The notes: generated by a model from the sequence alone, not told the origin. Positions 12,420 through 57,397 are shown, counted from the stretch's first letter. The stretch: 64,000 nt of DNA from Candidatus Spyradenecus sp. (GCA_045613865.1 JAZLBT010000017.1:19152-83151); one strand, 5' to 3'. Numbers and translations: made by a program.

Positions 12420-12988
12420 GGTGCAACTTCTGTCGAAGGGGTTATAGTTTGTTCAATCGCAACGGGTTCTTCATGTTGTTGTTTGATGAAGAGCTTAGAA
12501 ATGAGAGAATCTTCACCAATTGCTCCCCAACGAATGAGTAAGCACACCGTGGTTACGCAAACAGCCGCGAGGAGAACGCCAAGCACGTTAGCAATATAAA
12601 AGGTCTTACGCTTAAAGGCAAAACAAAATGCACCGAGAGCCCCCGTTACCGCACCTGTTCCAGGGAGTGGAATGCCAATGAAAAGAGCAAGCCCCCATTG
12701 ACCATGCTTTTCCATAACGGGACGAAGGCGCTCTTGACGTTTTACAACGTGTGGCCAAATGCGTTCTTCAAAGAACTTAAATGTACGCATAATACGCAAG
12801 ATTGGAGCAAGCACTTCAAAGACGCCAATGCCAAGCAGAATGTTTGCCAAAGTACAAATTGCAACGACACTTGTCCAATGAAGCTGGTCGCTGAAGGCAA
12901 AGATACCCATTGGAATTGAAAAACGTAATTCCAATGCTGGAATACATGTGAAGACGAAAAGCCAGAAGATTGTGATAAACAAGTCCAT
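12416..12988 (-). CDS. Small integral membrane protein (COG2426-like)
   Basis: About 190 aa from the MDLFITIF start, which lies just after the CaCA stop. 4-5 transmembrane helices. No enzymatic motif. Confidence 0.5.
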   Translation of the reverse strand: MDLFITIFWLFVFTCIPALELRFSIPMGIFAFSDQLHWTSVVAICTLANILLGIGVFEVLAPILRIMRTFKFFEERIWPHVVKRQERLRPVMEKHGQWGLALFIGIPLPGTGAVTGALGAFCFAFKRKTFYIANVLGVLLAAVCVTTVCLLIRWGAIGEDSLISKLFIKQQHEEPVAIEQTITPSTEVAP

Positions 12989-13001
12989 AAATTCTTTCCT
13001 T

Positions 13002-14072
13002 TTAATTGGTGGCAAGAACAACCCAAACGGTGTAGATGAGCCATAAGATGAGGAAGAGAATACCGAGGGGTCGACCGAGTGTAATATGGGGAGAAGGCTT
13101 TTGTTTACGAATACGCGCCCAAACAATGAGTGCTGGCACCCACAAAAGGAGCGTGGAGATAATCATCGAGAAGAGATCTCGATAACGTAAACCATTGGGA
13201 AGATTTTCACCCGCAACAGGCTGAATCATTAATGCAAGCCCTGCGACAATACAAAGGTTGAAACAGTTTGAACCGATAACGTTACCGACGGCAATATCAT
13301 CCTGGCCCTTGCGTGTTGCAACAACCGATGCCATAAGCTCAGGCAGTGACGTTCCCAAAGCAATGATGGTCACGCCAACAATGAGCTGTGTCGCAGACTG
13401 CGAAATGCCCACTGCTTGTGCAACGGTTTCTGCAATCCACTTAGCAGAATAAACGAGCATCTGAGAAGAGAGAATTAAGAGGGTTAAACCACCAGCAATC
13501 GAAGCAAGCATTTTGCTAACAGACATCTGTTTTGAACAACACTCGCAGTCCTCTTCTTCACTGACTGTTGCAGTTTCACGTTGTTTCCATGCAATGCAGA
13601 TTTGGTAGGAGAGAAAGATGATAAAGATTATAAAGAGCGAGGCACCTTCAAGGCGAGAGAGCCCGTTATGAGCGCCAACACAAAATGCGCTTAAAAGGCC
13701 CATCACTCCAAGAAGAAACGGAATGTCACGTTTCAACACGATGCGATGCAACGCAATTGGTGCAATGAGCATACAAACGCCAAGAATGAGGAGAACATTG
13801 GTGATGTTACTGCCATAAGCATTACCGAGGGCAAGCACGGGGGCCCCTTGCGCTGCTGCAAGAACAGAAACAATCATTTCCGGTGCGCTCGTTCCGAAGC
13901 CAACAATCACAAAGCCAATAATCAATGGAGGAATGGCAAGACGACATGCAAGCGCAACCGCGCCCTCGACGAAAATCTCGGCACTCTTGGTCAACAAAAA
14001 CATGCCTATAATCAAACCCGCAATTGCGAGTGGCCATAACGACCATGCAGGTAAACAACTTGTAAGTAACAT
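13002..14072 (-). CDS. Sodium/calcium exchanger (CaCA family, YrbG-like)
   Basis: 356 aa. Two alpha-repeat signatures, GTSAPEM and GNVIGSN / GNAYGSNITN. Confidence 0.85.
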   Translation of the reverse strand: MLLTSCLPAWSLWPLAIAGLIIGMFLLTKSAEIFVEGAVALACRLAIPPLIIGFVIVGFGTSAPEMIVSVLAAAQGAPVLALGNAYGSNITNVLLILGVCMLIAPIALHRIVLKRDIPFLLGVMGLLSAFCVGAHNGLSRLEGASLFIIFIIFLSYQICIAWKQRETATVSEEEDCECCSKQMSVSKMLASIAGGLTLLILSSQMLVYSAKWIAETVAQAVGISQSATQLIVGVTIIALGTSLPELMASVVATRKGQDDIAVGNVIGSNCFNLCIVAGLALMIQPVAGENLPNGLRYRDLFSMIISTLLLWVPALIVWARIRKQKPSPHITLGRPLGILFLILWLIYTVWVVLATN

Positions 14073-14092
14073 CTTTGAACTCCTTTTTAAAA

Positions 14093-14959
14093 TTAAACTT
14101 CAGGACGTGTAAACCACCCCGAACGCCATTCACCGATGAGCTTATTTTCAACCTCAACAAGTCCACATGCTTCAAAGGCGGCCTTAACATCGGGATAGAG
14201 TGTATCAAGGATACCAGAGGCAATGAGTTGACCACCGGGAAGAACAGCACAGGCTACTTCCTTGGCATATTGAATCAAAACAGGACCAAGAATATTTGCC
14301 AAAATAATAGCGCCTTGATCAAGGTTGTCCGCTAAATTACGTGGTTCAAAGGGAATGTTAAGATTGTTGAGCGCGGCATTTTCTTTTGCAATGCGCACTG
14401 CATCTGGGTCATAGTCAAATCCACGAACATTGGTGAATCCAAGCTTGCACGCGGCGATGGCGAGAATACCACTTCCGCAACCCATGTCCAAAACAGGACG
14501 CTTTAAATCACCGGTCGCTAACTGATCGAGGAACTGCAAACATGCGCGTGTGGTCGGGTGCTTACCTGTTCCGAAGCTCATGCCTGGATCCAAAACAATG
14601 ACAGCCTCACCTTCAGAGGGTGTATAACTTTCCCATGAAGGACGAATGGTGATACGCTCGGAGATCTTTTCAACATGGAAGAAACGCTTCCATGCTTCTT
14701 GCCAATCTGCATTATTGAGTGTGTCACGCGTACAATTGACAGTCATCCCGGCAAGTTCAGCCGCTTGAACGAGCGCGACTTCAACCGCATCCGCCTGGGT
14801 TGCATCTTCCAAAAATACATCAAGGCGAACTTCGTGGGTCTCAATATCTTCCCAGAAGGTTGGCGTGAAAGCATCGCCATCTAAAAGCTCCAACAACAAA
14901 TCTGCCGCCTCAGAGGAGGGAAGACGTGTAGAAACAACGGTGAGCATTTGTTGAGACAT
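14093..14959 (-). CDS. prmA: Ribosomal protein L11 methyltransferase
   Basis: 288 aa. SAM-binding motif VLDMGCGSGILAIAA and PrmA-like layout. Confidence 0.85.
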   Translation of the reverse strand: MSQQMLTVVSTRLPSSEAADLLLELLDGDAFTPTFWEDIETHEVRLDVFLEDATQADAVEVALVQAAELAGMTVNCTRDTLNNADWQEAWKRFFHVEKISERITIRPSWESYTPSEGEAVIVLDPGMSFGTGKHPTTRACLQFLDQLATGDLKRPVLDMGCGSGILAIAACKLGFTNVRGFDYDPDAVRIAKENAALNNLNIPFEPRNLADNLDQGAIILANILGPVLIQYAKEVACAVLPGGQLIASGILDTLYPDVKAAFEACGLVEVENKLIGEWRSGWFTRPEV

Positions 14960-14984
14960 ATTTTAATCCTTTTCTGGAGAGGTT

Positions 14985-15935
14985 TTACGAGTGAATCCAT
15001 TGTAATGGGGTGAGCTGGAGAACGCGTTCAAATTCTTCTCGTGTACGTGTGAGTTTGAGACTATCCCAAAGACGATCGCCGTGTTGAAAGGTGGGCGCGA
15101 GATAACTCCATAATTCCTTGAGATGGCCAAGAAGTGCGTGGTCCCCATGCGAGGTGGCAGCATAGCCATCAAGAATGGTTTGATGCCAAGCCTTGAAACG
15201 TTCCATTTCACGCATATCCTTGCCTTCGCAAATCGACTCTGCAAGGAAGGGATTGGCAACAATTCCTCGCCCTAACATCCAACGTTCAATCTTCGGGAAA
15301 CGTGTTTGCAAACGTTGGAAATCTTCCAACGTACGAATGTCGCCATTATAAACAAGCGGGAGCGTTGTACGTTCAGCAACACGCTCAAAGGCGTCCAGGT
15401 CAACCGTTCCCTCGTACATTTGCTTGGCGGTACGCGGATGCACGCAAATTTCACGTAAGGGAAACGACTGAATCGTATCAAGACGATCAAGCAAAAGCGT
15501 CTTATCCTCAAGACCTAAACGAACCTTAATAGAGAAGTGACCTTCGCCGAGGACCTCGCAACCAACAGCAAGCATTTGCGCGAGGATGGATTCATCTTTA
15601 AGTAAACCAGATCCGCGCCCCTTCTTTGCAACAAAAGGCCATGGACATCCAGCATTGAGGTCGACATCTTTATAGCCGAGCGCCTGCATCGCTTGAAGCA
15701 TGACGCGAAGCTGTTCGGGCGACTTTCCAATGACCTGTGGAATCAGCGGCAAATGCGCAGGCTGTACTGTCGGATCAATACTTTTGAGTACTTCGGGTTT
15801 TACTTTAGGCCCCTGTGTTGTCGCAATAAAGGGTGCAACTGCGAGACTTAAACCAGAGAAGTGCTGGCAATAGGCTTGACGAAAGGTCAAACCTGTAACA
15901 CCTCGGAGCGGAGCAAGAAAGATTTGTGTTGCCAT
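14985..15935 (-). CDS. tRNA-dihydrouridine synthase (Dus family)
   Basis: 316 aa. LAPLRGVTG (LAPMAGVTD-like), NAGCPW, IKVRLG and HPRT motifs. Confidence 0.85.
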   Translation of the reverse strand: MATQIFLAPLRGVTGLTFRQAYCQHFSGLSLAVAPFIATTQGPKVKPEVLKSIDPTVQPAHLPLIPQVIGKSPEQLRVMLQAMQALGYKDVDLNAGCPWPFVAKKGRGSGLLKDESILAQMLAVGCEVLGEGHFSIKVRLGLEDKTLLLDRLDTIQSFPLREICVHPRTAKQMYEGTVDLDAFERVAERTTLPLVYNGDIRTLEDFQRLQTRFPKIERWMLGRGIVANPFLAESICEGKDMREMERFKAWHQTILDGYAATSHGDHALLGHLKELWSYLAPTFQHGDRLWDSLKLTRTREEFERVLQLTPLQWIHS

Positions 15936-19220: not shown

Positions 19221-19369
19221 ATAACATATAATAAAATAAATGCGCGAAATTATACCATATAAATAATATAAAGACAAGCGCGAATTAAACACCCCAAAAG
19301 GAGTGGACATTGTAAGTCTCCATGAGGGGAATATACCCTTTGATGAAAGGGACAAATTGTACCCTTTTT

Positions 19370-19452
19370 CAAACCCTATTGATTTGCTCGTCAAACCCTA
19401 TTGATTTGACCTTCAAAACCTATTGATTTCAAACGCAAAACAATAGGGTTTG
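19370..19452. repeat. Array of 4 copies of a 17-nt motif with 22-bp period (3 x CAAACCCTATTGATTTG, then 1 inverted CAAAACAATAGGGTTTG)
   Basis: Read directly. Lies in the 625-bp divergent intergenic region between the PPIase (-) and S8 protease (+) genes. The same motif recurs at 56.7 kb in the opposite orientation. Confidence 0.85.
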
Positions 19453-19518
19453 AAAAACACCCCAAATTCCTCCCATTTCCCAAAGAATTTCGAAGGATTT
19501 GATTTCACTTTTTCAATC

Positions 19519-20020: not shown

Positions 20021-22387
20021 ATGTTCGGACGACGAGGGTTATTTTTCTGTGGTTTAGTGGTGGCAGCGATGGGTGTTGTCATCGGGTGGGGTGTTGTTTT
20101 TTCTTCGTCGCGTCGAGTAGTTTATTGTGCGCCAAAGGTGGTGGAGGGGAATGTATATGATCGTTTGGCGGAGTCGGACGAGGGGGTAAAGGTAGCATTG
20201 GCAGGGTGCCGACCGTTTGTGGAGGAGGTGTCAAAGGTGGCAGTGTTGTCGCGGAATCGTTTGGTGGCGCGGTGTGTGGTGGCAGCGCCAGAGGAGGCGG
20301 TTGAGGTCGCGGTTTTTTGTAAGGATTTAGAGGCTGTTGCGCAGGTGTTGTCGGGGTTGCCGATGTTGGTGGCTTCGGCGCAGGAGCCGTTGGTATTAAA
20401 GGGGCGTGTGGAATGTGGGATGTTGTTGCCGTTTTTGCAGCAGCCACCAAAGGGAGTGTTGGGGATTGAGGAGCAGGGAACGTTGCGTCTTTATAATGCG
20501 GTGGCCTCGGGGCCGCGTTTTGTTGGAACGGCATCACATGTGTTGCCGTCGATGCAGGGGTTGGGGAGTTTTGGATTGGATGGCTCAGGCGAGATTGTCG
20601 CGGTGATTGATACGGGGATTTGTTCGGGGGTATTTGAACAAGATTTTCATGTTGATTTGAAGGCGGGGCTTTATGGGATGGTGGCGGAGCCTTCGTCGAG
20701 TAGGGATGTGCCGGTGGATTTGGATGGGCATGGCACGCATGTTTGTGGGTCGATTATTTCGCGAGGATCGCAGTATGCGCAGACGCGTGGGGGTGCACAG
20801 GGCGCACGGTTGTATATGCAGGGGATTGGCGCGGGTTATGCTGGTGGGATAGATTTGCTCTCGGAGGTGAATGTTCATTTTGAGCGAAGTGCATTGATGG
20901 GGGCAAAGATTGTTTCAAATTCATGGGGGAATAATGTTCCAGGGAAGATGTATAGCTCTGGAGGCTATACAGTATATACTTCGCGATTGGATCAGTTTGT
21001 ATGGAATAATCCTGAGATGCTTGTGTTGTTTGCCACGGGAAATGATGGTAAGGATAATAATGGGGATGGTTTAGCGGATGCAAAGACGGTCATCAGTGCT
21101 GAGAATTATGCAAAGAATGTGTTAATTGTAGGGGCACAAGAGTCTTTTAGCACAACGTCAACGGCGACGTATGGAATGGGTTTTTCTTCGCATCAACAGA
21201 TTTATTCGGATTTGATGGCGTATCCGTATGATGGGGTACATGATGGGATGGCGGCGTTTTCTTCGCAAGGCCCACTTGTGGATGGACGTGTGTCACCGAT
21301 GATTGTTGCACCAGGGACGGAGATTGCCTCAACGTATTATGATTATGATACTTCGTATCTCGGAACGGCATTAAGCTCTGGAACATCGATGTCAACGCCT
21401 TTGGTGGCTGCGGCCGCGACGGTGTTGCGTCAGTATTTGCGAGAATATCATGCGCTTTCACGGCCAACGGCGGCATTGTTGCGTGCGGGGTTGGTGCTTT
21501 GTTCGGATTCGCTTTATCCAGGACAGTATGTGGGCGAGATACCGCAGGTGTCGCCAAACAGTGTTGAAGGGTGGGGTGCGCTTCACCTTGGGAAGCATTT
21601 GGCGGGGATTGATCGTGATGGAACGACGCAGATGCCAATGACTTTTGGGTTTAAGGATCGAATTGTGTTGGAGACGGCGGGCGCATCAACGTCGTTTACT
21701 TTCACAACGGATGAGGTTGGCGAAGTGCGAGTGGTGCTTTCGTGGATTGATTATCCGGATGTGGATGCTGCTTCTCAACCGCTCGTGAATGATTATAATC
21801 TCTCGGTTACGGATCCAACAGGGGTGGAGTATACGCTTGAGGATCATTTGAATCCAATTGAGCGTATTATTATAAAGGAAGGTGTTGTTGGCACGTATAC
21901 GGTGAAGGTAAGTGCGAGTAAGATTGGTCAGACGGGAACGGGAAATCTTGCTGCGCTTGCATGGTCGGCAAAGACGGCAGAGGCACCGATTGTGTTTCAG
22001 GCGCCTGTTGTTGCAACGAATACGGCGACGCTTGAGGTCCGGTTGCCGGAGGGGGCCGTGGCATATAAGGATTATCCTGTTTGGCCAGCGCCAGGGCAAC
22101 ATCTTTTTGGGGTTGGGAAGAAGATTGCCCCGATGGCAGGCCCGAAGCTTGGTTATTCGGCGTACACGAAGCATATTGTGACGCCTTTAGCGGGGTGGAT
22201 TTTATTTGATGCAAAAGGGCGACCGGTGCGGCAGCACTTTTCACAACGAGAGATGGTCACGCTTGCCTCTGGTGGTACGTTGGAAGGCGCGATTCTTCCT
22301 CCTGAAAAACCGCTTCTTCTTGAGCAAGGGTGGTACACGTTGCAGTGGTATACAACCTTTCCTGGGTATGGATTACAATTGGAATAA
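20021..22387 (+). CDS. Secreted subtilisin-like serine peptidase (S8 family) with long N-terminal region
   Basis: 788 aa. Asp/His/Ser triad motifs VIDTGI, HGTHVCGS, GTSMSTP. N-terminal signal/transmembrane segment, then about 150 aa that are rich in Val, Ala and Gly before the catalytic domain. Confidence 0.85.
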   Translation: MFGRRGLFFCGLVVAAMGVVIGWGVVFSSSRRVVYCAPKVVEGNVYDRLAESDEGVKVALAGCRPFVEEVSKVAVLSRNRLVARCVVAAPEEAVEVAVFCKDLEAVAQVLSGLPMLVASAQEPLVLKGRVECGMLLPFLQQPPKGVLGIEEQGTLRLYNAVASGPRFVGTASHVLPSMQGLGSFGLDGSGEIVAVIDTGICSGVFEQDFHVDLKAGLYGMVAEPSSSRDVPVDLDGHGTHVCGSIISRGSQYAQTRGGAQGARLYMQGIGAGYAGGIDLLSEVNVHFERSALMGAKIVSNSWGNNVPGKMYSSGGYTVYTSRLDQFVWNNPEMLVLFATGNDGKDNNGDGLADAKTVISAENYAKNVLIVGAQESFSTTSTATYGMGFSSHQQIYSDLMAYPYDGVHDGMAAFSSQGPLVDGRVSPMIVAPGTEIASTYYDYDTSYLGTALSSGTSMSTPLVAAAATVLRQYLREYHALSRPTAALLRAGLVLCSDSLYPGQYVGEIPQVSPNSVEGWGALHLGKHLAGIDRDGTTQMPMTFGFKDRIVLETAGASTSFTFTTDEVGEVRVVLSWIDYPDVDAASQPLVNDYNLSVTDPTGVEYTLEDHLNPIERIIIKEGVVGTYTVKVSASKIGQTGTGNLAALAWSAKTAEAPIVFQAPVVATNTATLEVRLPEGAVAYKDYPVWPAPGQHLFGVGKKIAPMAGPKLGYSAYTKHIVTPLAGWILFDAKGRPVRQHFSQREMVTLASGGTLEGAILPPEKPLLLEQGWYTLQWYTTFPGYGLQLE

Positions 22388-35347: not shown

Positions 35348-35722
35348 TTATGCTTTTGAGAGGATATAACCAAGTGTTGTTAGGAGAAGGCCGAGGAGGC
35401 CGCTTAAAATGAGATAGAAAAGGGCAAAGCCAATCTTGCCACTTTTAAGCGTTTCAAAAATTTCAAGCTGAAAGGTGGAAAATGTTGTGAGTCCGCCAAG
35501 AAATCCCACGGTTAAGAAGACGCGAAGAAGGTGTGGCAGTGCGTTCGCCTTGAGAAGTGTTAGTCCATAGAGATAACCCATTGCAAAACACCCGATGAGA
35601 TTAACGCAGAGAGTCCCCCAAAGTGCAAGGCCAAATGCGTTCTTACACAATTGAGAAATGGCAAAGCGTAAAACCGCACCAAGACCACCGCCAATAAAAA
35701 TTGCCAACCCTGTGGAAATCAT
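35348..35722 (-). CDS. crcB: Fluoride ion channel CrcB/FluC
   Basis: 124 aa. GGLGAVLRF and GFLGGLTTFSTF motifs, four transmembrane segments. GAGGAACG ribosome-binding site. Confidence 0.9.
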   Translation of the reverse strand: MISTGLAIFIGGGLGAVLRFAISQLCKNAFGLALWGTLCVNLIGCFAMGYLYGLTLLKANALPHLLRVFLTVGFLGGLTTFSTFQLEIFETLKSGKIGFALFYLILSGLLGLLLTTLGYILSKA

Positions 35723-35824: not shown

Positions 35825-35900
35825 TGGTGGAGGTAAGGAGAGTCGAACTCCTGACCTTTTGAATGCCATTCAAACGCTCTACCAACTGAGCTATACCCCC
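35825..35900 (-). tRNA. tRNA-Ala (anticodon GGC)
   Basis: Reverse complement GGGGGTATAGCTCAGTTGGTAGAGCGTTTGAATGGCATTCAAAAGGTCAGGAGTTCGACTCTCCTTACCTCCACCA. Cloverleaf folds, G3:U70 identity pair, anticodon loop ATGGCAT, encoded CCA. Confidence 0.9.
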
Positions 35901-36071: not shown

Positions 36072-36203
36072 TCATTTAGGTACGGTTTGATTGTCATTTA
36101 GGTGCTGTTTGAACGTCATTTAGGTGCTGTTTGATTCTCGTTTAGGTGCTGTTTGAACGTCATTTAGGTGCTGTTTGATTCTCGTTTAGATGCTGTTTGA
36201 TAA
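36072..36203. repeat. 6 contiguous tandem copies of a 22-bp unit TC(A/G)TTTAGGTGCTGTTTGA(ACG/TTC)
   Basis: Read directly. Variants alternate between GAACG and GATTC ends. No spacers, so it is not a CRISPR array. An inverted half-site (CACCTAAA) sits just upstream at about 36047. Confidence 0.9.
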
Positions 36204-36416: not shown

Positions 36417-37610
36417 ATGGCGAAAGAACAGCAAAAACTCAAAGTCGCGATGGTCGGTGGAGGACTTGACTCCTTCATGGGTAAGATTCATCGTGCCGCA
36501 ATCGAATCAAGCGGTTGTCTTGAGCTCGTGTGCGGAGCCTTCGGGTCGACACGTCAGCGTTCCTTCGACGCGGGGCGTGCAATTGGTCTTGATTTGAAGC
36601 GTGTTTACGGGGTTTACCGTGATATGTTTCGACGCGAATCAAAGATGCCTGCCGATGAACGCATTGACTTGATTACAATTATTGCGCCAAATAACATGCA
36701 CTATCCTGTGACAATGGCTGCATTTGACGCGAATTTACCTGTTTTCTCCGAAAAGCCAATGAGTTGCAATATGGATGAGGCGCAGAATCTTAAGCGTCGC
36801 ACATTGATGAGTCAGGAGTTTTATACAACGGCTTATTTGCATCCATTTTATCCAGCATTGGTGGCCTTGCGTGATTTTGTTTTGAATGCAGGTATTGGCA
36901 CGGTTCGTCGTGTTAATACGTGTTATTATCATGGTTGGATGGGCCCTCGTTTGGAAACAGCGGGGAATCGTTCAGCGATGTGGCGTGTGGATCCGCGGCG
37001 GTGCGGGTCGGGGGGCGCGATTTATGATTTGGCAGGTCCGTGCATGTTGCTCGCAGAGTGGGCATCGGGGCTTGCGGTAACGGCATTGTCTGCAGGTGGC
37101 CGTCCGGCAGTGGCGGGACGTGTTTTGGATGACGATGTGACGGTTCATTTGCGTTTTGATAATGGTGCGATGGGCTTTATCGCTGCAAGTCAGATTGCAA
37201 TTGGCGAAGCGGATGGCATGCAACTTTCAATCTATGGCGATAAGGGTGCTGTTCATTGGAAGCAGTCGACGGGTAATAAGTGGACGGTTGTTGATGTTGA
37301 TGGGCATCGCACGGAGAAGACTGTTAAGGGGGCACCCGTTCCAACGTTGGGTGAAAATCGTTTCGCAGAGCCGTATGGCGATGACGCAGCTTTCATTGCT
37401 GCGCTTGCTGAGGCATATAAAGATTTTGCGAATGTGATTTATGCAAATCGCGAAGGTAAAGCCTATGAGATGAAGTGTGTGGGCGTGGATGAAGCATTGC
37501 GTGTCGCAACGTTTAACGAACTCGCCTCTCGCAGTGTGAACCAGTCGGTGGAAATGTCGCCAACGAAGTGGCTCGCTTTTGATGTGCCAAAGGTCGAACT
37601 TCTTATTTGA
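36417..37610 (+). CDS. Gfo/Idh/MocA-family NAD(P)-dependent oxidoreductase
   Basis: 397 aa. N-terminal Rossmann KVAMVGGGLDSFMGKIHRAAI and a C-terminal GFO_IDH_MocA_C-like domain. Confidence 0.75.
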   Translation: MAKEQQKLKVAMVGGGLDSFMGKIHRAAIESSGCLELVCGAFGSTRQRSFDAGRAIGLDLKRVYGVYRDMFRRESKMPADERIDLITIIAPNNMHYPVTMAAFDANLPVFSEKPMSCNMDEAQNLKRRTLMSQEFYTTAYLHPFYPALVALRDFVLNAGIGTVRRVNTCYYHGWMGPRLETAGNRSAMWRVDPRRCGSGGAIYDLAGPCMLLAEWASGLAVTALSAGGRPAVAGRVLDDDVTVHLRFDNGAMGFIAASQIAIGEADGMQLSIYGDKGAVHWKQSTGNKWTVVDVDGHRTEKTVKGAPVPTLGENRFAEPYGDDAAFIAALAEAYKDFANVIYANREGKAYEMKCVGVDEALRVATFNELASRSVNQSVEMSPTKWLAFDVPKVELLI

Positions 37611-37768
37611 GGAATGTTTCACTCGGACTTACGAGACGCGCTGCAGAAATGTGGCGCGTTTGTTGTTTTAAGGTGTTTACAAGAAAGAACAGGTGGGGGG
37701 TGTTTTAGATTTTCATAGAAAAATGTGGCTGAAAGTGATATTATATATGTATAAAGATGGGGAATCGC

Positions 37769-40700
37769 ATGAAATTATTATTTGCTCTTTTATCACTCTT
37801 TTTTGTGACGGCATTTGCGCGCGCAGAATTGACTTATTGTGTCTATGACATTGCAACAAAGACGGCAACCCAATTGGATGCCTCGAATGTTACGGTCATA
37901 GATGAGAATTATCGGAATGGGTCAAAGATTCTTTTTGTTCAAGATTCTGCAATTTCGACTGATTATTATATCGGGGTGTTTGAACTTACAAATGCTCAAG
38001 CATCCGCATTGGGGTGGACTGTTTTAAGTAGTATGACGTCATATGCGGGGACGGGGAGTGGTTTTTCTCCGCCTGCGGTGAGTGCCTATGATCAAGCACT
38101 TTCATTTCCAACAGTGGATCAGTGGCTCGCTTATGCAGGCACGCCACAGGAGATAGAGAAAGGTGTGTGTGAATACAATGTTCATTTTGGATGTTATAAT
38201 GTTCTTGGTCGACTGACAACATCAAGCACGTTGGAGGCTTGGATTGAACGCGAGGCATGGCCGTATGCTTCTAGCCATGGTACGTATGATATTTTTGGTA
38301 ATGTTGCGGAATATACGCAAGACGGCACCTTTCATGGGGGGGCATCTGCTTTTGATCCAAATAGTGCAATAACCTATAACGATCTTTGTAATTTAGCATC
38401 TACGAATTATGCATTGACCAATGATCACGAGGAAAAACACTATCTTGGTGTGCGTTTAGTATATACGCCACAAGTAGAGGGTGCTTATGATGTTTATTTG
38501 CGTGTGGAGGAGGGTGAGGTTAGAACAAATGGAACCCCTCAGGCCGAGGGCACTTATGCGGGCACGTATAAGTGTGATCGTAGATCCGCAGTTGCTTTCG
38601 TTTCAACGCTTCAACTCCCACAGTGGGCAGAGGCTTACACGGCAACATATGTTGAAGTAGAAGGTGGAGAAGAGAAAACGATTCAAGGTTCTTATACGCC
38701 AAATGAAGATGGGGAATTTGAATTCTCAGTTCCTGCGTGGATTCCGATTCAAGCCGTGATAACGTTGACACCAACGATTGCAACGTATCCCAAAGTGCAG
38801 TTTGAGAATATTGAGGTGGAGATTGTAAGCGGCGAAGCCTTTAATGCAACGTATTATCTTCCAGGAACAAAACTTTCGCTCACACCGAGTACGCTTGAAC
38901 ATCATACGTTTGTCAAATGGTCGGATGATAAGACCGCGACGCCTTATTCATTGACGTTGGAAAAGAATCAAACGTACATATTATCACCCGTTTATGATAA
39001 AGAACCTCATGTGACGATTACTAATGGTTCGGCAACTGTCACTGCCGGAGAAAGTACGGGTGATGGTTATTATCGCGTTGGAACAGAGATTGTGATTGTC
39101 CCAGAAGATCGCACGAGAACGGAATATCAAGCATTTTATCGTTGGGTTTATGGTAGTGCGTATGATACGACGGCAGAAAAACAGGTTGGGCCTTTAAAGG
39201 CAAATGATGTTTTGACTTATGAAGCCACTTATCAATATTATCCTAAAGTGATTGTGAATGATGGCGAGGTTGAGGTTCTTCAAGGGGAGGATCTTGGAGA
39301 AAACCATTATACTGCTAATGCAAGCCTTAAACTAAAAGCTAAGGATAAGACAAGTGAATGCAAGGTTTTTACGCGTTGGTCTGAAAATAGCACATCTACA
39401 AATACTGAGATTACAATAACCGCAGGCGCTTTAAAAGTTAAAGAACCCGCAACGGCAACTTATACTGCAAACTATGGAATGGCTCCTCAAGTACAAGTTG
39501 TGGGTGCGACGGTTAGTGTCGTTAGCGGTGAGGCATATGGGAATGGCTATTATAGCGTTGGTGCGCAATTGAAGTTGACGCCGACACCGGCTGTGCGTGA
39601 GGTCTTCCAATCGTGGACAGTGACAGGCGGTTCTCAACCGAGTGCACAAGGGGATGGAACGTACATTGTTGATGTTCCTGCCGTGGAGAAGGTTGCGACT
39701 TATACAGCGACGTTTGCTTCTGCGCCTCGCGTGATGGTCGAAAATGGCACAATAACCCTCGCCTCCGGCGCCGACCTTGGCAATGGTTATTACAGCGTGG
39801 GCTCGAAATTGACGTTAAAGGCGACTGCACCGAAATATGGAACATTTTATCAGTGGAAGAAGGACTCTACCATCGTGTCTACGAGTGAATCGTATACGAT
39901 TACGGTGCCTACTTCTGGTGAACAAAAGTTTGTCGCGACATTTCAGTCTTATCCGCGTGTATTTGTTAATGGCGCAAAGGTTGTTGTGACAAGTGGAACA
40001 AGTTATGGTGATGGTTATTATAGTGTAAATGCACAGTTGGAATTAACGCCAACTGTTCCCACGGGTTATAAGTTTACAAAGTGGTCGAATGATTCGACGA
40101 ATATTCCACTTACGATTAGAGCAAAGGGATATAATTCTAAAGAGAGCTATACCGCCAAATATGAAATTCAATCCGTGACAGCACAAACGGGGCATGCACT
40201 TGGCGGAATGGAGAATTTGCCTTTCGGCTGGTATGCCTCTGAAACGAAAACGTTGACTTTCGGCTCGAATACCTATACATATCCAGTCCTGAAGCGGGCT
40301 ACGACTGCGGTTGTAACGTTTGAAAATTTGACGACAACGAGTAATGTAGGCTATGATCAAACATCGTTTGATGATTCAACAAAGTTGACGTTTAAGTATG
40401 TTGACCCATTACAAATTGATAATAACTTGGATTTTGGAAATAAACCGTTTGCGGGAAACGGCACAATGAAATCAAAGGATGAGCTTCGAGCAATTCAACC
40501 TTATTATCTCGCGATGACAGAGGTGTCAAAACGTCAGGCGTATACGTGGGATAGTAAAAATGGAGGTTTAGAGGCGATTCCTTATGAAGTCTCGTCGTTA
40601 AGTGCTGCAGAAAGTGCAATCGCCGCAATGACGGGGAAATTTACGGCTTCAACAAAGACAACGGTGCGTCCAACGTTTGGTTTGCCCACATTGGGACAAC

Positions 40701-41863
40701 TCCAAGCTGCTGCAATTTTAGGATACACGAAGGCGAATCAAGAAAAGGGCGAAGCGCTTCAGACGGCGGTTTATTCTTACGCAGAACAAGGTGGGAATGA
40801 GTATCCAAATAAAACTATTGCTGCCGTAAATAGTGCGAATGTTGGTCAAACAAAAGCAGGTTTTTATGGCCTTATCGGGAATGCCGCAGAATGGATGGAT
40901 GGAGACTCGACAAACGTTTACGCAGGTGGTTTTTGGAGTAATAATGTTGGTGTTTACATAGTTCAAACAGCGACCAAAATGAAAGGTTGGGGGATGCGTC
41001 CCCTAATTACAACAGAAAATATCGAGTGCGTGAATGTGACGCTATCAATAGGTGGTAAATCCGAGACGTTTGCGTTTCAAAAGAATGCAACGATTAATCT
41101 TGGGACTCCAACAATGGCGAATAAGCGTTTCCTCGGGTGGCGCGTTGGTTCGAGTATAACAACGTCAAATGCAACAACGTTTAAGGTTACGGGTGCGACA
41201 ACCTATACCGCTGTATATGACGATTTAGTGCTTTCAACCATTACCTATATCGATTGCAATGGGGCGACATCATTACCGAAGGGTGCAACAACGGTTGTTT
41301 ATCCAACACCTGAAGGTGTAACAAAGACCTTTGCACGTTGGGAAGTGACGGGTGGCACGATGTCTGGCAATGTCTTTACCCCGACAGCTGCAACTGCGAC
41401 GGTCAAGGCCCTTTATACGACTACCGTTTCGACTGTAAGTTATGTGGATTGTACGGGACCGCAGTATGTTTCTATTGGCTCATCGGTACAAGTCTATTAC
41501 ACGCCTTCTACGGATCCAACAAAGACCTTTGATCGTTGGGTTGTAACGGGTGGCACGATGTCTGGTAATGTTTTCACGCCGACGGCTGAAAATGCGACGG
41601 TAAAGGCGACCTACAAGTCAAATGTAGTGGATGTTGTTTATGTGAATTGTTCGGGTCCCAAGACGATACGATTAGGTGGATCAGAACAAATTTATTATGT
41701 TGATCCTCCTGTTGGACAGGTATTTGATGGTTGGTCGGTTAGCGGGGATGCTACGATTGATAATAAGGGCGTTCTTACGGTGAAGGCAACGGCAACTGGG
41801 TCTCTCACAGTAACTGCGAATTATAAGAAAAATGCGCGGGGCTATATTCTTCGTTTAAAATAG
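37769..41863 (+). CDS. Large secreted multidomain protein: two degenerate FGE-sulfatase (SUMF1/DUF323)-like domains plus about 10 Listeria/Bacteroides-type B repeats (Flg_new-like)
   Basis: Signal peptide MKLLFALLSLFFVTAFA. Domain 1 contains YDIFGNVAEYTQDG...HYLGVRLVY. Domain 2 contains GFYGLIGNAAEWMDGD...GGFW...GWGMRPL. Repeats follow the pattern F(T/Q/A/D)(R/K/S/G)W with blocks ending ...TYTA.Y. Near-identical repeats at the C-terminus. Confidence 0.6.
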   Translation: MKLLFALLSLFFVTAFARAELTYCVYDIATKTATQLDASNVTVIDENYRNGSKILFVQDSAISTDYYIGVFELTNAQASALGWTVLSSMTSYAGTGSGFSPPAVSAYDQALSFPTVDQWLAYAGTPQEIEKGVCEYNVHFGCYNVLGRLTTSSTLEAWIEREAWPYASSHGTYDIFGNVAEYTQDGTFHGGASAFDPNSAITYNDLCNLASTNYALTNDHEEKHYLGVRLVYTPQVEGAYDVYLRVEEGEVRTNGTPQAEGTYAGTYKCDRRSAVAFVSTLQLPQWAEAYTATYVEVEGGEEKTIQGSYTPNEDGEFEFSVPAWIPIQAVITLTPTIATYPKVQFENIEVEIVSGEAFNATYYLPGTKLSLTPSTLEHHTFVKWSDDKTATPYSLTLEKNQTYILSPVYDKEPHVTITNGSATVTAGESTGDGYYRVGTEIVIVPEDRTRTEYQAFYRWVYGSAYDTTAEKQVGPLKANDVLTYEATYQYYPKVIVNDGEVEVLQGEDLGENHYTANASLKLKAKDKTSECKVFTRWSENSTSTNTEITITAGALKVKEPATATYTANYGMAPQVQVVGATVSVVSGEAYGNGYYSVGAQLKLTPTPAVREVFQSWTVTGGSQPSAQGDGTYIVDVPAVEKVATYTATFASAPRVMVENGTITLASGADLGNGYYSVGSKLTLKATAPKYGTFYQWKKDSTIVSTSESYTITVPTSGEQKFVATFQSYPRVFVNGAKVVVTSGTSYGDGYYSVNAQLELTPTVPTGYKFTKWSNDSTNIPLTIRAKGYNSKESYTAKYEIQSVTAQTGHALGGMENLPFGWYASETKTLTFGSNTYTYPVLKRATTAVVTFENLTTTSNVGYDQTSFDDSTKLTFKYVDPLQIDNNLDFGNKPFAGNGTMKSKDELRAIQPYYLAMTEVSKRQAYTWDSKNGGLEAIPYEVSSLSAAESAIAAMTGKFTASTKTTVRPTFGLPTLGQLQAAAILGYTKANQEKGEALQTAVYSYAEQGGNEYPNKTIAAVNSANVGQTKAGFYGLIGNAAEWMDGDSTNVYAGGFWSNNVGVYIVQTATKMKGWGMRPLITTENIECVNVTLSIGGKSETFAFQKNATINLGTPTMANKRFLGWRVGSSITTSNATTFKVTGATTYTAVYDDLVLSTITYIDCNGATSLPKGATTVVYPTPEGVTKTFARWEVTGGTMSGNVFTPTAATATVKALYTTTVSTVSYVDCTGPQYVSIGSSVQVYYTPSTDPTKTFDRWVVTGGTMSGNVFTPTAENATVKATYKSNVVDVVYVNCSGPKTIRLGGSEQIYYVDPPVGQVFDGWSVSGDATIDNKGVLTVKATATGSLTVTANYKKNARGYILRLK

Positions 41864-41879: not shown

Positions 41880-43304
41880 ATGGATCAGTTAACCTATTTA
41901 ATTGCTTTTTTGATTTTGATTTCGTTAATTGCGGTTGTGCCGGCATTGGTGCGTCGTTGGCATGTGCCTGCGGTGGTTGCAATTATGGCGTGTGGTATTT
42001 TTATTGGTCCACATGGATGTCATGTTTTAACATCAATTGCGAATGTGATGGATTCGGGTGTGACGGGAGAAGAACTGCTTCGTGTCGTTGATGCGCTCGG
42101 CTTTCTTGGTCTTGTTTTTCTTATGGCATTGGCGGGTGTTGAAACCGATTTGCGGATGCTTGTTAATGAAAAACGTGCGGTGACATCGCTTTCGATTTTA
42201 ACCTTTGTCTTGCCTGCGGCAGCGGGGTATTTTGTGTATTGGCTCTTTGAACCTGCGAATCCAATTAGCGCATGGGTTTATGCTTCGTTGTTTGCTTCGC
42301 ACTCGATTGGTATTGTGTTTCCCGTGATTCGAGAAATGGGGTTGGTGCGTTCTCGGTTTGGAATCGCAGTGCTTTCGTCAACAGTGATAACGGATATTTT
42401 ATCTCTTATTTTGCTTGCGGTTTGCGTTCAGTTACAGGTCTTTACCTTCCCCGATAAAATGTCGATTACGACGGGAATTTCTGTGTTAAACCACTTTGAC
42501 CTCTCGTGGATGGGGACGACATGTTTTACGCTTGCGTTCATTGTTCTTATTATTGTTTTCATTGCATGTGTTTTATTGCTTGTTCCTTTTCTATGGCGTG
42601 CGGTGGAGGGCGTCTTGCCAAAGGGCGATGAGTCGAAGGTTACCTTCTTTGTGTTGGTTGTTTTGTTAATTGTTTTGACCGGTGAGTTAATAGGAGTAAA
42701 TCTAATTGTTGGTGCGTTCGTTGCAGGTATGGCGATTGCGCGTACACCTGGTTTTCGTAAGGCCGATGAGGATATTGTCGGTGAGGCGATAGAATTCACT
42801 CCTCAAGATGGCGATATTCACCGTAAGCTTGAAGCTGTGGGATTTGGGTTAATGGTGCCTTTCCTCTTTTTGAGCGTTGGCTTTAAGGCAGATATTGGTG
42901 TTCTTTTTGGGATGGGTGAAGGCGTGTCTGCAACACGTAACTTGCTTATCGCAGGCGCTACGGTCTTGGGGCTTGTCTTGAGTAAGGTTTCGAGCGGATG
43001 GCTTGCAATGCGTTTGTCAGGGTTTGGGAATCGTCAGGGGCTTTGTGCAGGATTAATGACGGTGCCACAACTCTCGGCAACAATTGCTGCGGCTGCTGTC
43101 GCGTTAGAGTTGGAACTTCTAAATGAGGTTTTCTTTAATGCTATTATTGTTCTCTCTTTGGCAACAACATTGCCTATACCAACGCTTGTTCGTATTCTTA
43201 TTGAGCGCAGCGGGGTCTCGTTTGACACCTCCGATCGAGGGCCTGCGGCAATTCGTGAGGCGAGAAGTATTACTGAACGAGAACATCTTGATATGACAGT
43301 GTAA
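41880..43304 (+). CDS. Cation:proton antiporter (CPA family, Na+/H+ exchanger-like)
   Basis: 474 aa with about 12 transmembrane segments and a hydrophilic C-terminal tail. Confidence 0.6.
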   Translation: MDQLTYLIAFLILISLIAVVPALVRRWHVPAVVAIMACGIFIGPHGCHVLTSIANVMDSGVTGEELLRVVDALGFLGLVFLMALAGVETDLRMLVNEKRAVTSLSILTFVLPAAAGYFVYWLFEPANPISAWVYASLFASHSIGIVFPVIREMGLVRSRFGIAVLSSTVITDILSLILLAVCVQLQVFTFPDKMSITTGISVLNHFDLSWMGTTCFTLAFIVLIIVFIACVLLLVPFLWRAVEGVLPKGDESKVTFFVLVVLLIVLTGELIGVNLIVGAFVAGMAIARTPGFRKADEDIVGEAIEFTPQDGDIHRKLEAVGFGLMVPFLFLSVGFKADIGVLFGMGEGVSATRNLLIAGATVLGLVLSKVSSGWLAMRLSGFGNRQGLCAGLMTVPQLSATIAAAAVALELELLNEVFFNAIIVLSLATTLPIPTLVRILIERSGVSFDTSDRGPAAIREARSITEREHLDMTV

Positions 43305-43316
43305 AGGAATAGGAAA

Positions 43317-44273
43317 ATGACATCACCTTTACTTTCAATTGACCATCTTTCTGTAACCTTTCGCACTCCGACAGGCGAAGTCACGCCTGTTCCAGATGTC
43401 TCGTTGCAAGTTTATCCTGGAGAACGCGTTGCCCTTGTTGGTGAATCGGGGTGTGGCAAATCTGTGACGGCATTGAGTATTACAGCATTGCCACCAACAG
43501 ATCGTGCACAATTAAAAGGATCGATAACCTTTGATCAAAGTCCTAATTTGATTGAGCATCCCGAGGCTTTGGCGGCAATTCGTCGTCAGGGAATTGCCTA
43601 TGTTTTTCAGGACCCAATGGCATCGTTAAATCCCGTGATTCGTATTCGTAAACAAATAGCAGAGGTTCTCCCTGTAATGTCGAAAGACGCACAGCGTGAT
43701 GAGATTCTGCAATTGCTTAATGATGTTGGGCTCCCCGATCCTGCGCGTGCAGCAGAGGCATTTCCATGTGAATTGTCGGGTGGTCAATGTCAACGTGTGA
43801 TGCTTGCGATGGCCCTCGCTGCGAAGCCTAAGCTTCTTATCGCAGATGAACCAACAACGGCGCTTGACGTTACAACACAACGTCGTATTCTTGGCTTGAT
43901 GGATCGCCTCGCTCAAGAACGTCATATGGCGCTCTTACTCATCACACATAATCTTGGTATTGTCGCAAGTTATATGCAACGTCTTTATGTGATGTATGCG
44001 GGGCGTATTGTTGAGCAAGGTAATGTGAAGGATGTTCTTCCCTCACCAATGCATCCTTATACAAAGGGACTTCTTGCGGCGGTGCCAAGCTTGCGACTTG
44101 AGAAGGATCGTTTGCAAGATATTCCCGGAACAGTTCCCCCCCCAGGGCGTTTCCCTGCTGGGTGTGCGTTTGCACCGCGCTGCGTTTTTGCTCAGCCGAC
44201 ATGCGCGACTCATTTGCCTGAACTCATAGAACAAGGGAATCGTGCGTTTCGCTGTCCCTATGTCGAGCGGTAA
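43317..44273 (+). CDS. ABC transporter ATP-binding protein, oligopeptide/dipeptide (OppD/DppD) type
   Basis: Walker A GESGCGKS, signature LSGGQCQRV, Walker B LLIADEPTTALD and an Opp-type C-terminal extension (PYTKGLLAAVP...CxFxxRC). No permease or substrate-binding-protein partner is adjacent. Confidence 0.8.
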   Translation: MTSPLLSIDHLSVTFRTPTGEVTPVPDVSLQVYPGERVALVGESGCGKSVTALSITALPPTDRAQLKGSITFDQSPNLIEHPEALAAIRRQGIAYVFQDPMASLNPVIRIRKQIAEVLPVMSKDAQRDEILQLLNDVGLPDPARAAEAFPCELSGGQCQRVMLAMALAAKPKLLIADEPTTALDVTTQRRILGLMDRLAQERHMALLLITHNLGIVASYMQRLYVMYAGRIVEQGNVKDVLPSPMHPYTKGLLAAVPSLRLEKDRLQDIPGTVPPPGRFPAGCAFAPRCVFAQPTCATHLPELIEQGNRAFRCPYVER

Positions 44274-56667: not shown

Positions 56668-56757
56668 TCAAATCAATAGGTTTTGATCGTCAAATCAATA
56701 GGGTTTTGATCGTCAAATCAATAGGGTTTGGACTTCAAAACAATAGGGTTTACTTTT
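56668..56757. repeat. Array of 4 tandem copies (22-23 bp period) of TCAAATCAATAGGGTTT, same family as the 19.4 kb array but in the opposite orientation
   Basis: Read directly. One copy lacks a G and the last is TCAAAACAATAGGGTTT. Solitary copies occur at about 56925 (CAATAGGGTTTGAAAAG) and about 57664 (TAATAGGGTGAAAAAC). Confidence 0.85.
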
Positions 56758-57306: not shown

Positions 57307-57397
57307 GGAGAGGTGGCCGAGTGGTCGAAGGCGCAAGACTGGAAATCTTGTGTACTCCTCGTGGGTACCGTGGGTTCAAATCCCACCCTCTCCGCCA
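57307..57397 (+). tRNA. tRNA-Ser (anticodon GGA)
   Basis: GGAGAGGTGGCCGAGTGGTCGAAGGCGCAAGACTGGAAATCTTG...GGGTTCAAATCCCACCCTCTCCGCCA. Long variable arm, class II tRNA, anticodon loop CTGGAAA, encoded CCA. Confidence 0.9.

Follow-up and report, generated by a model that had tools for sequence, protein, structure and literature searches.

Divergent FGE-sulfatase-like modules alternating with B-repeat arrays in a predicted exported protein of Candidatus Spyradenecus

The window analysed here is a stretch of 64,000 nucleotides from Candidatus Spyradenecus sp. (GCA_045613865.1 JAZLBT010000017.1:19152-83151). A gene at positions 37769..41863 codes for a protein of 1364 amino acids (aa) in which two divergent modules, related to the formylglycine-generating enzyme (FGE) and its superfamily (FGE-sulfatase), alternate with two arrays of InlB-type B repeats. 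Its product is probably exported by Sec to the cell envelope and would act there, without catalysis, in binding or as an antigen, with two lectin-fold heads carried on repeat stalks. The coding sequence and its parts are as follows.

37769..41863 (+), coding sequence, 1364 aa and the stop codon
37769..37825 (+), predicted signal peptide, aa 1-19 (MKLLFALLSLFFVTAFARA); signal-peptidase-I site A-x-A, no lipobox; kept in homologs
37826..38488 (+), module 1, aa 20-240, an N-terminal beta-hairpin (ELTYCVYDI) followed by a divergent core of predicted FGE-sulfatase fold
38489..38803 (+), degenerate beta-rich linker, aa 241-345, about 1.3 decayed B repeats; no Pfam match
38804..40180 (+), repeat array A, aa 346-804, six InlB-type B repeats (Flg_new_2) with a period of about 78 aa
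40181..41044 (+), module 2, aa 805-1092, a beta-rich part (aa ~805-905) followed by an FGE-sulfatase-like core
41045..41836 (+), repeat array B, aa 1093-1356, four shorter B-type repeats with a period of about 66 aa
41837..41860 (+), C-terminal tail RGYILRLK, a terminal motif found throughout the family; an amphipathic basic strand

Two FGE-sulfatase-like modules and two B-repeat arrays

In module 1, the motifs KILFVQD, YYIGVFELTNAQA, SFPTVDQWLAYAG, HGTYDIFGNVAEY, HGG, and LGVRLVY follow each other in this order. In module 2, the order is PYYLAMTEVSKRQA, FGLPTLGQLQAAA, AGFYGLIGNAAEWMD, AGGFW, and WGMRPLI. Both modules close with G-x-R-(L/P) (LGVRLVY in module 1 and WGMRPLI in module 2), with G208/R210 and R288 invariant in the family. 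The Pfam profile PF03781 matches the central module only (aa 952-1044 against profile positions 105-190) and at a marginal score (24.8 bits with the whole protein, for a gathering threshold of 23.3, and 20.1 bits with the isolated segment). Module 1 gives no direct match to it, even at E <= 10, and alignments of the family were therefore built (A1 for module 1 with 18 sequences, and A2 for module 2 with 15).

The invariant motifs of A1 are YYIGVFE(L/V)T, (F/L)PTxxQWxAY, HGxxDxFGNVAEY, GG, and G(A/V)R(L/P)(I/V)Y, and A2 shows motifs corresponding to them. Compared with hhalign, the two alignments match over 175 columns (probability 97%, E = 1.1e-10), so that the modules are paralogous. PF03781 is matched at E <= 1 by 15 of the 18 homologous module 1 sequences (best 6.6e-5). 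Against 1.84 billion representative proteins, the A1 profile gives 2098 matches at E <= 1e-3, with the query itself at E = 1.6e-64 and 37 matches to the core family at E <= 1e-30. The next matches (E = 1e-18 to 1e-25) are large proteins, each with three or four PF03781 domains of canonical type (Pfam E as low as 1e-187), and the A1 stretches map one-to-one onto these canonical domains. Judged by such profile searches, and decisively by the one with A1, module 1 can be assigned to the FGE-sulfatase superfamily. The two degenerate FGE/SUMF1-like modules of the initial annotation, each with its closing GxR(L/P), are thus recovered, the N-terminal one by profiles; a domain search with PF03781 reaches only the central one.

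With the sequences of the PDB, TvpA (Treponema denticola variable protein 1, PDB 2y3c) comes first for both profiles (E = 3.5e-3 with A1 and 1.1e-4 with A2). Below it come CarF, PorK, PvdO, SUMF2, and FGE (SUMF2 and FGE at E ~0.02 with A2, PorK at E ~0.05-0.07 with A1). With the whole protein, no match to the PDB is found by phmmer and no family is matched in NCBIfam.

The AF2 model of module 1 has a pLDDT of 74 and a pTM of 0.80; that of module 2 is of low confidence (pLDDT 60). With Foldseek, neither model finds a match in the PDB at E < 0.1 (best, PorK at E = 0.13 and CarF at E = 0.73), and the top non-significant matches (PorK, EgtB, TaqVP, and CarF) are all FGE-fold proteins. In BFVD, a single match of the module 1 model is notable, that to a protein of Microcystis phage LMM01 with a SUMF-like domain (E = 1.7e-3, probability 1.00, TM 0.45). 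Structure prediction, proposed earlier as a check on the modules, is therefore weakly positive for the FGE fold: no unrelated fold is indicated, but there is no significant PDB match and the pLDDT is low to moderate.

The copper-binding cysteine pair of FGE sits between the GG motif and the terminal GFR/GxR motif. No cysteine is present among the invariant or near-invariant columns of A1 or A2. From the GNxAEW motif to GxR, module 1 of the query contains a single, non-conserved cysteine, and module 2 contains no cysteine there. In both modules, variability is highest in the segment from GG to GxR (column entropy 2.2-2.7 bits). Since no conserved cysteine occurs in either module, the protein is not a formylglycine-generating enzyme, in agreement with the initial annotation, in which no cysteine pair was obvious and a binding protein was preferred to an enzyme. 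From these alignments, the protein is almost certainly non-enzymatic.

The repeats belong to PF18998 (Flg_new_2, "Divergent InlB B-repeat domain"), which matches the whole protein at E = 1.7e-12 (47.6 bits for a cut-off of 23.6) in five stretches, all within aa 238-804. Array A alone matches at E = 1.3e-15 (57.5 bits); array B, on its own, is undetected by Pfam. Hidden Markov models (HMMs) iterated from one repeat of either array find the same 10 units, six in aa 346-804 and four in aa 1098-1356, and the two arrays are linked by these mutual matches (domain E-values across arrays of 1e-8 to 1e-16). In the alignment of the 10 units, the F and W of F-x-x-W are invariant and the ending (T)Y(T)A-x-Y is visible, so that the count of about 10 B repeats made at first is retained. 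On the other hand, PF09479, the repeat family then named, is absent from the query at E <= 1 (whole protein) or E <= 10 (segments), PF18998 matching instead; some homologs carry PF09479 in precomputed annotation.

Chunked self-BLAST gives the periods of the two arrays (about 78 aa in A and 66 aa in B), and in self-BLAST aa 304-389 align with aa 617-701 (E = 7e-13). Repeats 2 and 3 of array B are 57% identical (DNA repeat D2, 76% identity). With a profile of the ten repeats, nothing significant is found in the PDB; InlB is not recovered, and the best match is a glucanase (E = 0.08), followed by antibody light chains. Proteins with B repeats or Flg_new domains are regarded as adhesin-like and are enriched in host-associated microbes (PMC9723798). 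The query shares with these InlB/B-repeat adhesin-like proteins the PF18998 repeats, arranged in tandem arrays in exported proteins of host-associated microbes (PMC9723798). It differs from InlB by the absence of leucine-rich repeats and of GW modules, and the organism is a diderm of the PVC (Planctomycetes-Verrucomicrobia-Chlamydiae) group instead of a Firmicute.

The family, its termini, and its module alleles

A homology search returned 38 proteins, among which P0002-P0035 (about 880-1160 aa) show the architecture in full. Within the family, conservation is highest over the N-terminal 250 aa (module 1). The core family is lineage-specific and unannotated, and consists of about 40 clusters at 50% identity (members P0002-P0035, P0039-P0070, and P0080). 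Relatives were found in 18 species-level genomes, many of them from animal guts, and the labels of the carriers are mostly Kiritimatiellae, Kiritimatiellaeota, 'Ca. Spyradenecus', or Lentisphaeraceae. One contig carrying a family gene (L009, CAVDHG010000019.1) is labelled Agathobacter rectalis, a Firmicute; it is probably mis-binned, since all other carriers are metagenome-assembled genomes (MAGs) of Kiritimatiellae or Lentisphaeraceae.

The architecture is fixed: after the signal peptide and LxYxxYDL, an FGE-like module with a run of B repeats behind it comes twice in succession, and the terminal motif closes the chain. In nearly all complete members, the signal peptide directly abuts (A/E)-L-x-Y-x-x-Y-D-L, and the sequence ends with G-[YF]-x-[FLI]-[RK]-[LV]-[RK], mostly PGYRFRLR. 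The query has every one of these elements; its mature N-terminus reads ELTYCVYDI, and its C-terminus RGYILRLK. The terminal motif is present in the family gene only, both among the 212 open reading frames (ORFs) of the window and among the ORFs of 18 loci. Among 146 further proteins with FGE domains, it occurs only in members of the family, with P0073 as a partial exception. The motif is therefore, as far as sampled, a feature of the family, and this confinement speaks against a general sorting signal. The tail may act as a signal for anchoring or assembly. A covariation in charge between the N-terminal (LEY/LKY) and C-terminal (GYR/GYI) strands was considered and is inconsistent by eye, P0043, P0068, and P0070 pairing K with R.

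P0073 (1258 aa) resembles the query in combining FGE-sulfatase and Flg_new_2 domains in one secreted protein (three of the former and five repeats of the latter), and its tail, ...KRPGARLMIR, resembles the family motif. Both domain families and their combination are thus already known. The A1 profile matches the FGE domains of P0073 at E = 1e-14 to 1e-17. Proteins of this type differ from the query by canonical FGE domains (Pfam E = 2e-51 to 1e-187, against 24.8 bits or nothing in the query), by another number and order of domains, and by the absence of the LxYxxYDL mature N-terminus. P0073 may come from a sister family with less degenerate modules. Our literature search found no paper describing proteins that combine FGE-like and B-repeat domains. 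What goes beyond routine annotation is the fixed two-headed architecture, the conserved termini, and a polymorphism of head cassettes within a related species without a diversity-generating retroelement (DGR).

The only closely related MAG with a syntenic locus is GCA_030535915 (L001, where 12867-15255 corresponds to window 41880-44273). The Na+/H+ exchanger and the ABC ATPase encoded downstream are 85% and 83% identical between the two genomes. The family protein of that locus, P0002, is only 39% identical to the query in module 1 and 28% in module 2, and, with 936 aa, it is 428 aa shorter. Judged by these identities, the gene evolves far faster than its flanks.

Alleles were compared among 16 family members with near-identical signal peptides, stalks, and C-termini (80-95% identity). 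Module 1 occurs in three allele types: A and B are 34-40% identical, C is intermediate (about 62-72% identical to A), and identity within a type is mostly 82-100%. For module 2, there are likewise three types, with an identity of 25-55% from one type to another and mostly of 75-100% inside a type. Of the nine pairings that the alleles of module 1 and module 2 allow, seven are observed in the 16 proteins. Three of these proteins are encoded at orthologous loci of one related species, on contigs of three metagenome samples (L020 10001-13231, L021 5671-8904, and L022 10001-13216), where the flanks are 97.6-99.7% identical in DNA. Where the allele types differ, there is no detectable DNA similarity at gene positions ~270-850 (the core of module 1) and ~1700-2900 (module 2). 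With unalignable alleles between near-identical flanks, the FGE-like modules behave as exchangeable heads on a conserved scaffold. Exposed proteins on which diversifying or frequency-dependent selection acts typically behave in this way.

The gene and its surroundings in the window

The long frame in the ORF listing is 37757..41863 (+), giving 1368 aa if the first ATG is used. The ATG at 37769 (MKLLFALL..., 1364 aa) is preferred, since its product is identical to a database protein (P0001, an unannotated hypothetical), GGGGAA lies 7-12 nucleotides (nt) upstream, and all homologs start with MK. Read off the sequence, MKLLFALLSLFFVTAFARA followed by ELTY has an n-region, a hydrophobic core, and a cleavage site between A-R-A and E. 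From this signal peptide, the protein is predicted to be Sec-exported. No lipobox cysteine is present in the signal peptide of the query, and the same position is not a cysteine in the homologs. Signals for transcription and the adjoining genes are the following.

36417-37610, GFO/IDH/MocA gene, upstream of the 1364-aa gene
37634..37661 (+), terminator-like hairpin from a consensus scan, 12 pairs followed by a T run, 3' of the GFO/IDH/MocA gene
37716..37744 (+), weak sigma-70-like promoter candidate, TAGAAA, 17-nt spacer, TATTAT, with an extended-10 TG; 9 of 12 consensus positions
41880-43304, Na_H_Exchanger gene, downstream and co-directional
43317-44273, ABC_tran + oligo_HPY gene, downstream and co-directional; OppD/F-like, with no permease or binding protein adjoining

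The hairpin would end the GFO/IDH/MocA gene, and the 1364-aa gene would therefore begin its own transcription unit; the promoter candidate lies 25 nt 5' of the start codon. Between the stop codon and the exchanger gene, the gap is 16 nt, so that the exchanger and ABC ATPase genes probably share a transcript with the 1364-aa gene. The domain scan agrees with the neighbours identified at the outset (a Gfo/Idh/MocA gene upstream, an antiporter and an orphan ABC ATPase downstream).

The scan of the neighbourhood covered 29 genes, about 17 kb on each side. The neighbours are housekeeping or unrelated, among them subtilase, TrmD, ClpB, penicillin-binding protein, XerC/D, ALAD, FabH, FkbH-like, GT4, GHMP kinase, CrcB, RibD, a PD40 protein, GDH, RsmB, and an aminotransferase. 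Among these genes there are no sulfatase, anaerobic sulfatase-maturating enzyme (anSME), carbohydrate-active enzyme (CAZyme), or polysaccharide utilization locus (PUL) genes, and no genes of the type IX secretion system (T9SS). The synteny with the antiporter and the ABC ATPase is limited to the one closely related MAG, and these two genes are thus uninformative on function. In other clades, the family gene lies between MutL and an antiporter, between alanine racemase and a Mur ligase, or between a ribosomal-protein operon with a flavodoxin-like gene and aconitase. Across 17 loci, no conserved partner gene or neighbourhood is found, with synteny at the level of clades and with housekeeping genes only (IMPDH, alanine racemase, Mur ligase, ribosomal protein operon, and aconitase). 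An ABC ATPase gene is near several loci but at varying positions and strands, and was judged incidental as a partner.

Other features of the window lie farther from the gene. Three arrays of 22-nt tandem units, each framed by TCAAA...TTTGA, occur at 19369-19453, 36072-36200, and 56668-56753, all in divergent intergenic regions. The sequence TCAAATCAATAGGGTTTGA has eight occurrences over two of the arrays, in opposite orientation (0.02 expected by chance), and TCATTTAGGTGCTGTTTGA has six (0.03 expected by chance). Two arrays lie upstream of a tRNA gene, in one case that of tRNA-Ala (35825-35900, -) and in the other that of tRNA-Ser (57307-57397, +). The arrays may be arrays of protein-binding sites. 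The tRNA-Ala gene is in the upstream region of crcB (fluoride channel, 35348-35722, -), where no fluoride riboswitch is found at the Rfam gathering threshold. The subtilase gene (Peptidase_S8, 20021-22387, +, 788 aa) is in a segment with an unusually strong GC skew (0.38) and is preceded by an AT-rich region (GC 0.41) with one of the 22-nt arrays. At 699-768, a perfect 33-nt tandem duplication is present (2.1 copies, 100% identity).

A binding protein and the other readings

In the reading that we favour, the two heads are the paralogous, divergent modules, of predicted FGE-sulfatase fold (the FGE subtype of the C-type-lectin fold) and without the copper-binding cysteine pair. B repeats form a stalk behind each head, with six or seven of them behind the first and four behind the second. 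The conserved mature N-terminus and the basic C-terminal strand probably serve in export, anchoring, or assembly. We infer that the protein is exposed at the cell surface, where the heads would bind an external ligand or be recognised by phages or by antibodies of the host.

The variable protein TvpA, diversified by a DGR, binds a ligand and has an FGE-type C-type-lectin fold (PMC6328139). It was compared with the query family together with other variable proteins with this subtype of the fold (Mtd and TaqVP). By profile, no solved protein is closer to the two modules than TvpA, which shares the motifs LPTxAEW and GLYDxxGNVxEW with them; in both systems the protein is exported and non-catalytic, and the sequence variation lies in the domain with this fold, a predicted one in the query family (PMC6328139). 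A role in binding and not in catalysis, as suggested earlier, fits with this kinship (PMC6328139), because TvpA binds a ligand, and also with the allelic replacement of the modules in a related species. TvpA differs from the query in being a single-domain lipoprotein, diversified by the DGR in a short variable region. The query, on the other hand, has two modules in a chain of 1364 aa, B-repeat stalks, no lipobox, and no DGR, and its relatives vary by replacement of whole modules.

Several points weigh against a binding protein at the surface. In a diderm, a signal-peptidase-I signal leads to the periplasm only, and the FGE-fold proteins PorK/GldK and PvdO act there. No partner gene or conserved neighbourhood was found. 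A single copy per locus among housekeeping genes, with strict termini, also suits a structural component of the envelope. The models are mediocre (pLDDT 74 and 60), so that the predicted fold is backed by the one BFVD match (E = 1.7e-3). Finally, the cassette polymorphism is seen in a related species and not in that of the window, whose protein has one moderately close relative.

A structural role in the envelope, or in a machine for secretion or motility, is the next reading to be weighed, although it appears rather unlikely. The protein would be PorK/GldK/GldJ-like, or a subunit of an S-layer or fibre assembling through its terminal strands. PorK, GldK, and GldJ are exported, non-catalytic, and of FGE-sulfatase fold, as is predicted for the query; PorK is among the top profile matches of module 1 and is the top Foldseek match in the PDB. 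Each locus has one copy of the gene, with housekeeping genes around it in all clades that were examined, and the architecture and both termini are strictly kept across about 40 clusters. However, the PorK matches are not significant in either search. PorK, GldK, and GldJ are Bacteroidota lipoproteins of type IX secretion and gliding, forming rings with PorN, whereas the query has no lipoprotein cysteine, no nearby T9SS genes, two modules with B repeats, and a fast evolution; no conserved partner genes were found. Components of machines usually evolve slowly, while here the identity is about 30-40% against 83-85% in the flanks, and the modules are swapped for unalignable alleles within a species.

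A bolder proposal, to which we give a small chance, is that of an unrecognised envelope protein that defines the gut Kiritimatiellae and Lentisphaeraceae as a lineage. The terminal strands LxYxxYDL and GYRFRLR would form a new signal for sorting, anchoring, or head-to-tail assembly, and whole-module head cassettes would recombine within species independently of any DGR. If so, the exchange of head cassettes would change ligand specificity or help to evade phages or host immunoglobulin A (IgA).

Quite improbable is the binding of sulfatases, in the manner of SUMF2, or of sulfated glycans, which would tie the protein to the use of sulfated polysaccharides. SUMF2 (pFGE) is the non-catalytic human paralog of FGE and has the FGE fold without the catalytic cysteine pair. 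The pair is likewise missing from the query modules, and SUMF2 and FGE are among the profile matches of module 2 (SUMF2 at E = 0.02). Cultured Kiritimatiellales are also sulfatase-rich degraders of sulfated polysaccharides (PMC6388578). Yet the similarity to module 2 is confined to the generic GNxWEW motif (21-28 residues), and SUMF2 is a single-domain eukaryotic protein of the endoplasmic reticulum. The absence of sulfatase, anSME, CAZyme, and PUL genes in the 17 kb on each side extends to the genes beside the family genes of other clades. Discrete, divergent head alleles in one species would also be unexpected for a chaperone of the conserved CxPxR motif. The glycan- or sulfatase-binding function proposed in the initial annotation finds no supporting evidence here.

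An active enzyme of the FGE superfamily, whether formylglycine-generating, EgtB/OvoA-like, or active in oxidative maturation like PvdO, is very improbable. The PF03781 match and the presence of FGE, EgtB, and PvdO among the weak profile and fold matches could be taken in its favour. Against it stand the absence of conserved cysteines in either module, the variability (2.2-2.7 bits) of the very segment that holds the cysteine pair in FGE, and the absence, by Pfam, of the DinB-like domain of EgtB-type enzymes. FGE depends on O2, and anaerobic Kiritimatiellales, with 11-20 PF03781 genes, yet rely on a single anSME (PMC6388578). The genomes of the relatives are anaerobic gut MAGs, a lineage in which the O2 requirement of FGE argues against such an activity (PMC6388578).

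Since TvpA is the variable protein of a DGR, a template repeat was sought. No second copy of the 3' part of either module is found in the 64-kb window by a repeat search and a sensitive blastn, and there is no reverse transcriptase among the 29 neighbouring genes, so that a DGR target is ruled out within the window. That the gene is such a target, as the kinship with TvpA and the high variability of the region equivalent to its variable region might suggest, is scarcely credible, the alleles of the relatives differing over whole modules (25-40% identity) and not by adenine-specific changes in a short variable region. A phage origin was also considered and rejected: the A1 profile finds no relative in IMG/VR.

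With the binding or antigenic protein retained as the preferred reading, the gene can be annotated in the window as coding for an exported, non-enzymatic, two-module FGE-fold/B-repeat protein. Matches to PF03781 in anaerobes should not be taken as formylglycine-generating enzymes, and, with no diversity-generating retroelement involved, the FGE-type lectin fold can supply a variable scaffold for binding. Kiritimatiellae are widespread, and almost uncultured, in the gut communities of animals, and we know of no account of their contacts with host surfaces, phages, or other cells. The family is a candidate for the interface of Kiritimatiellae with such host surfaces, phages, or other cells.

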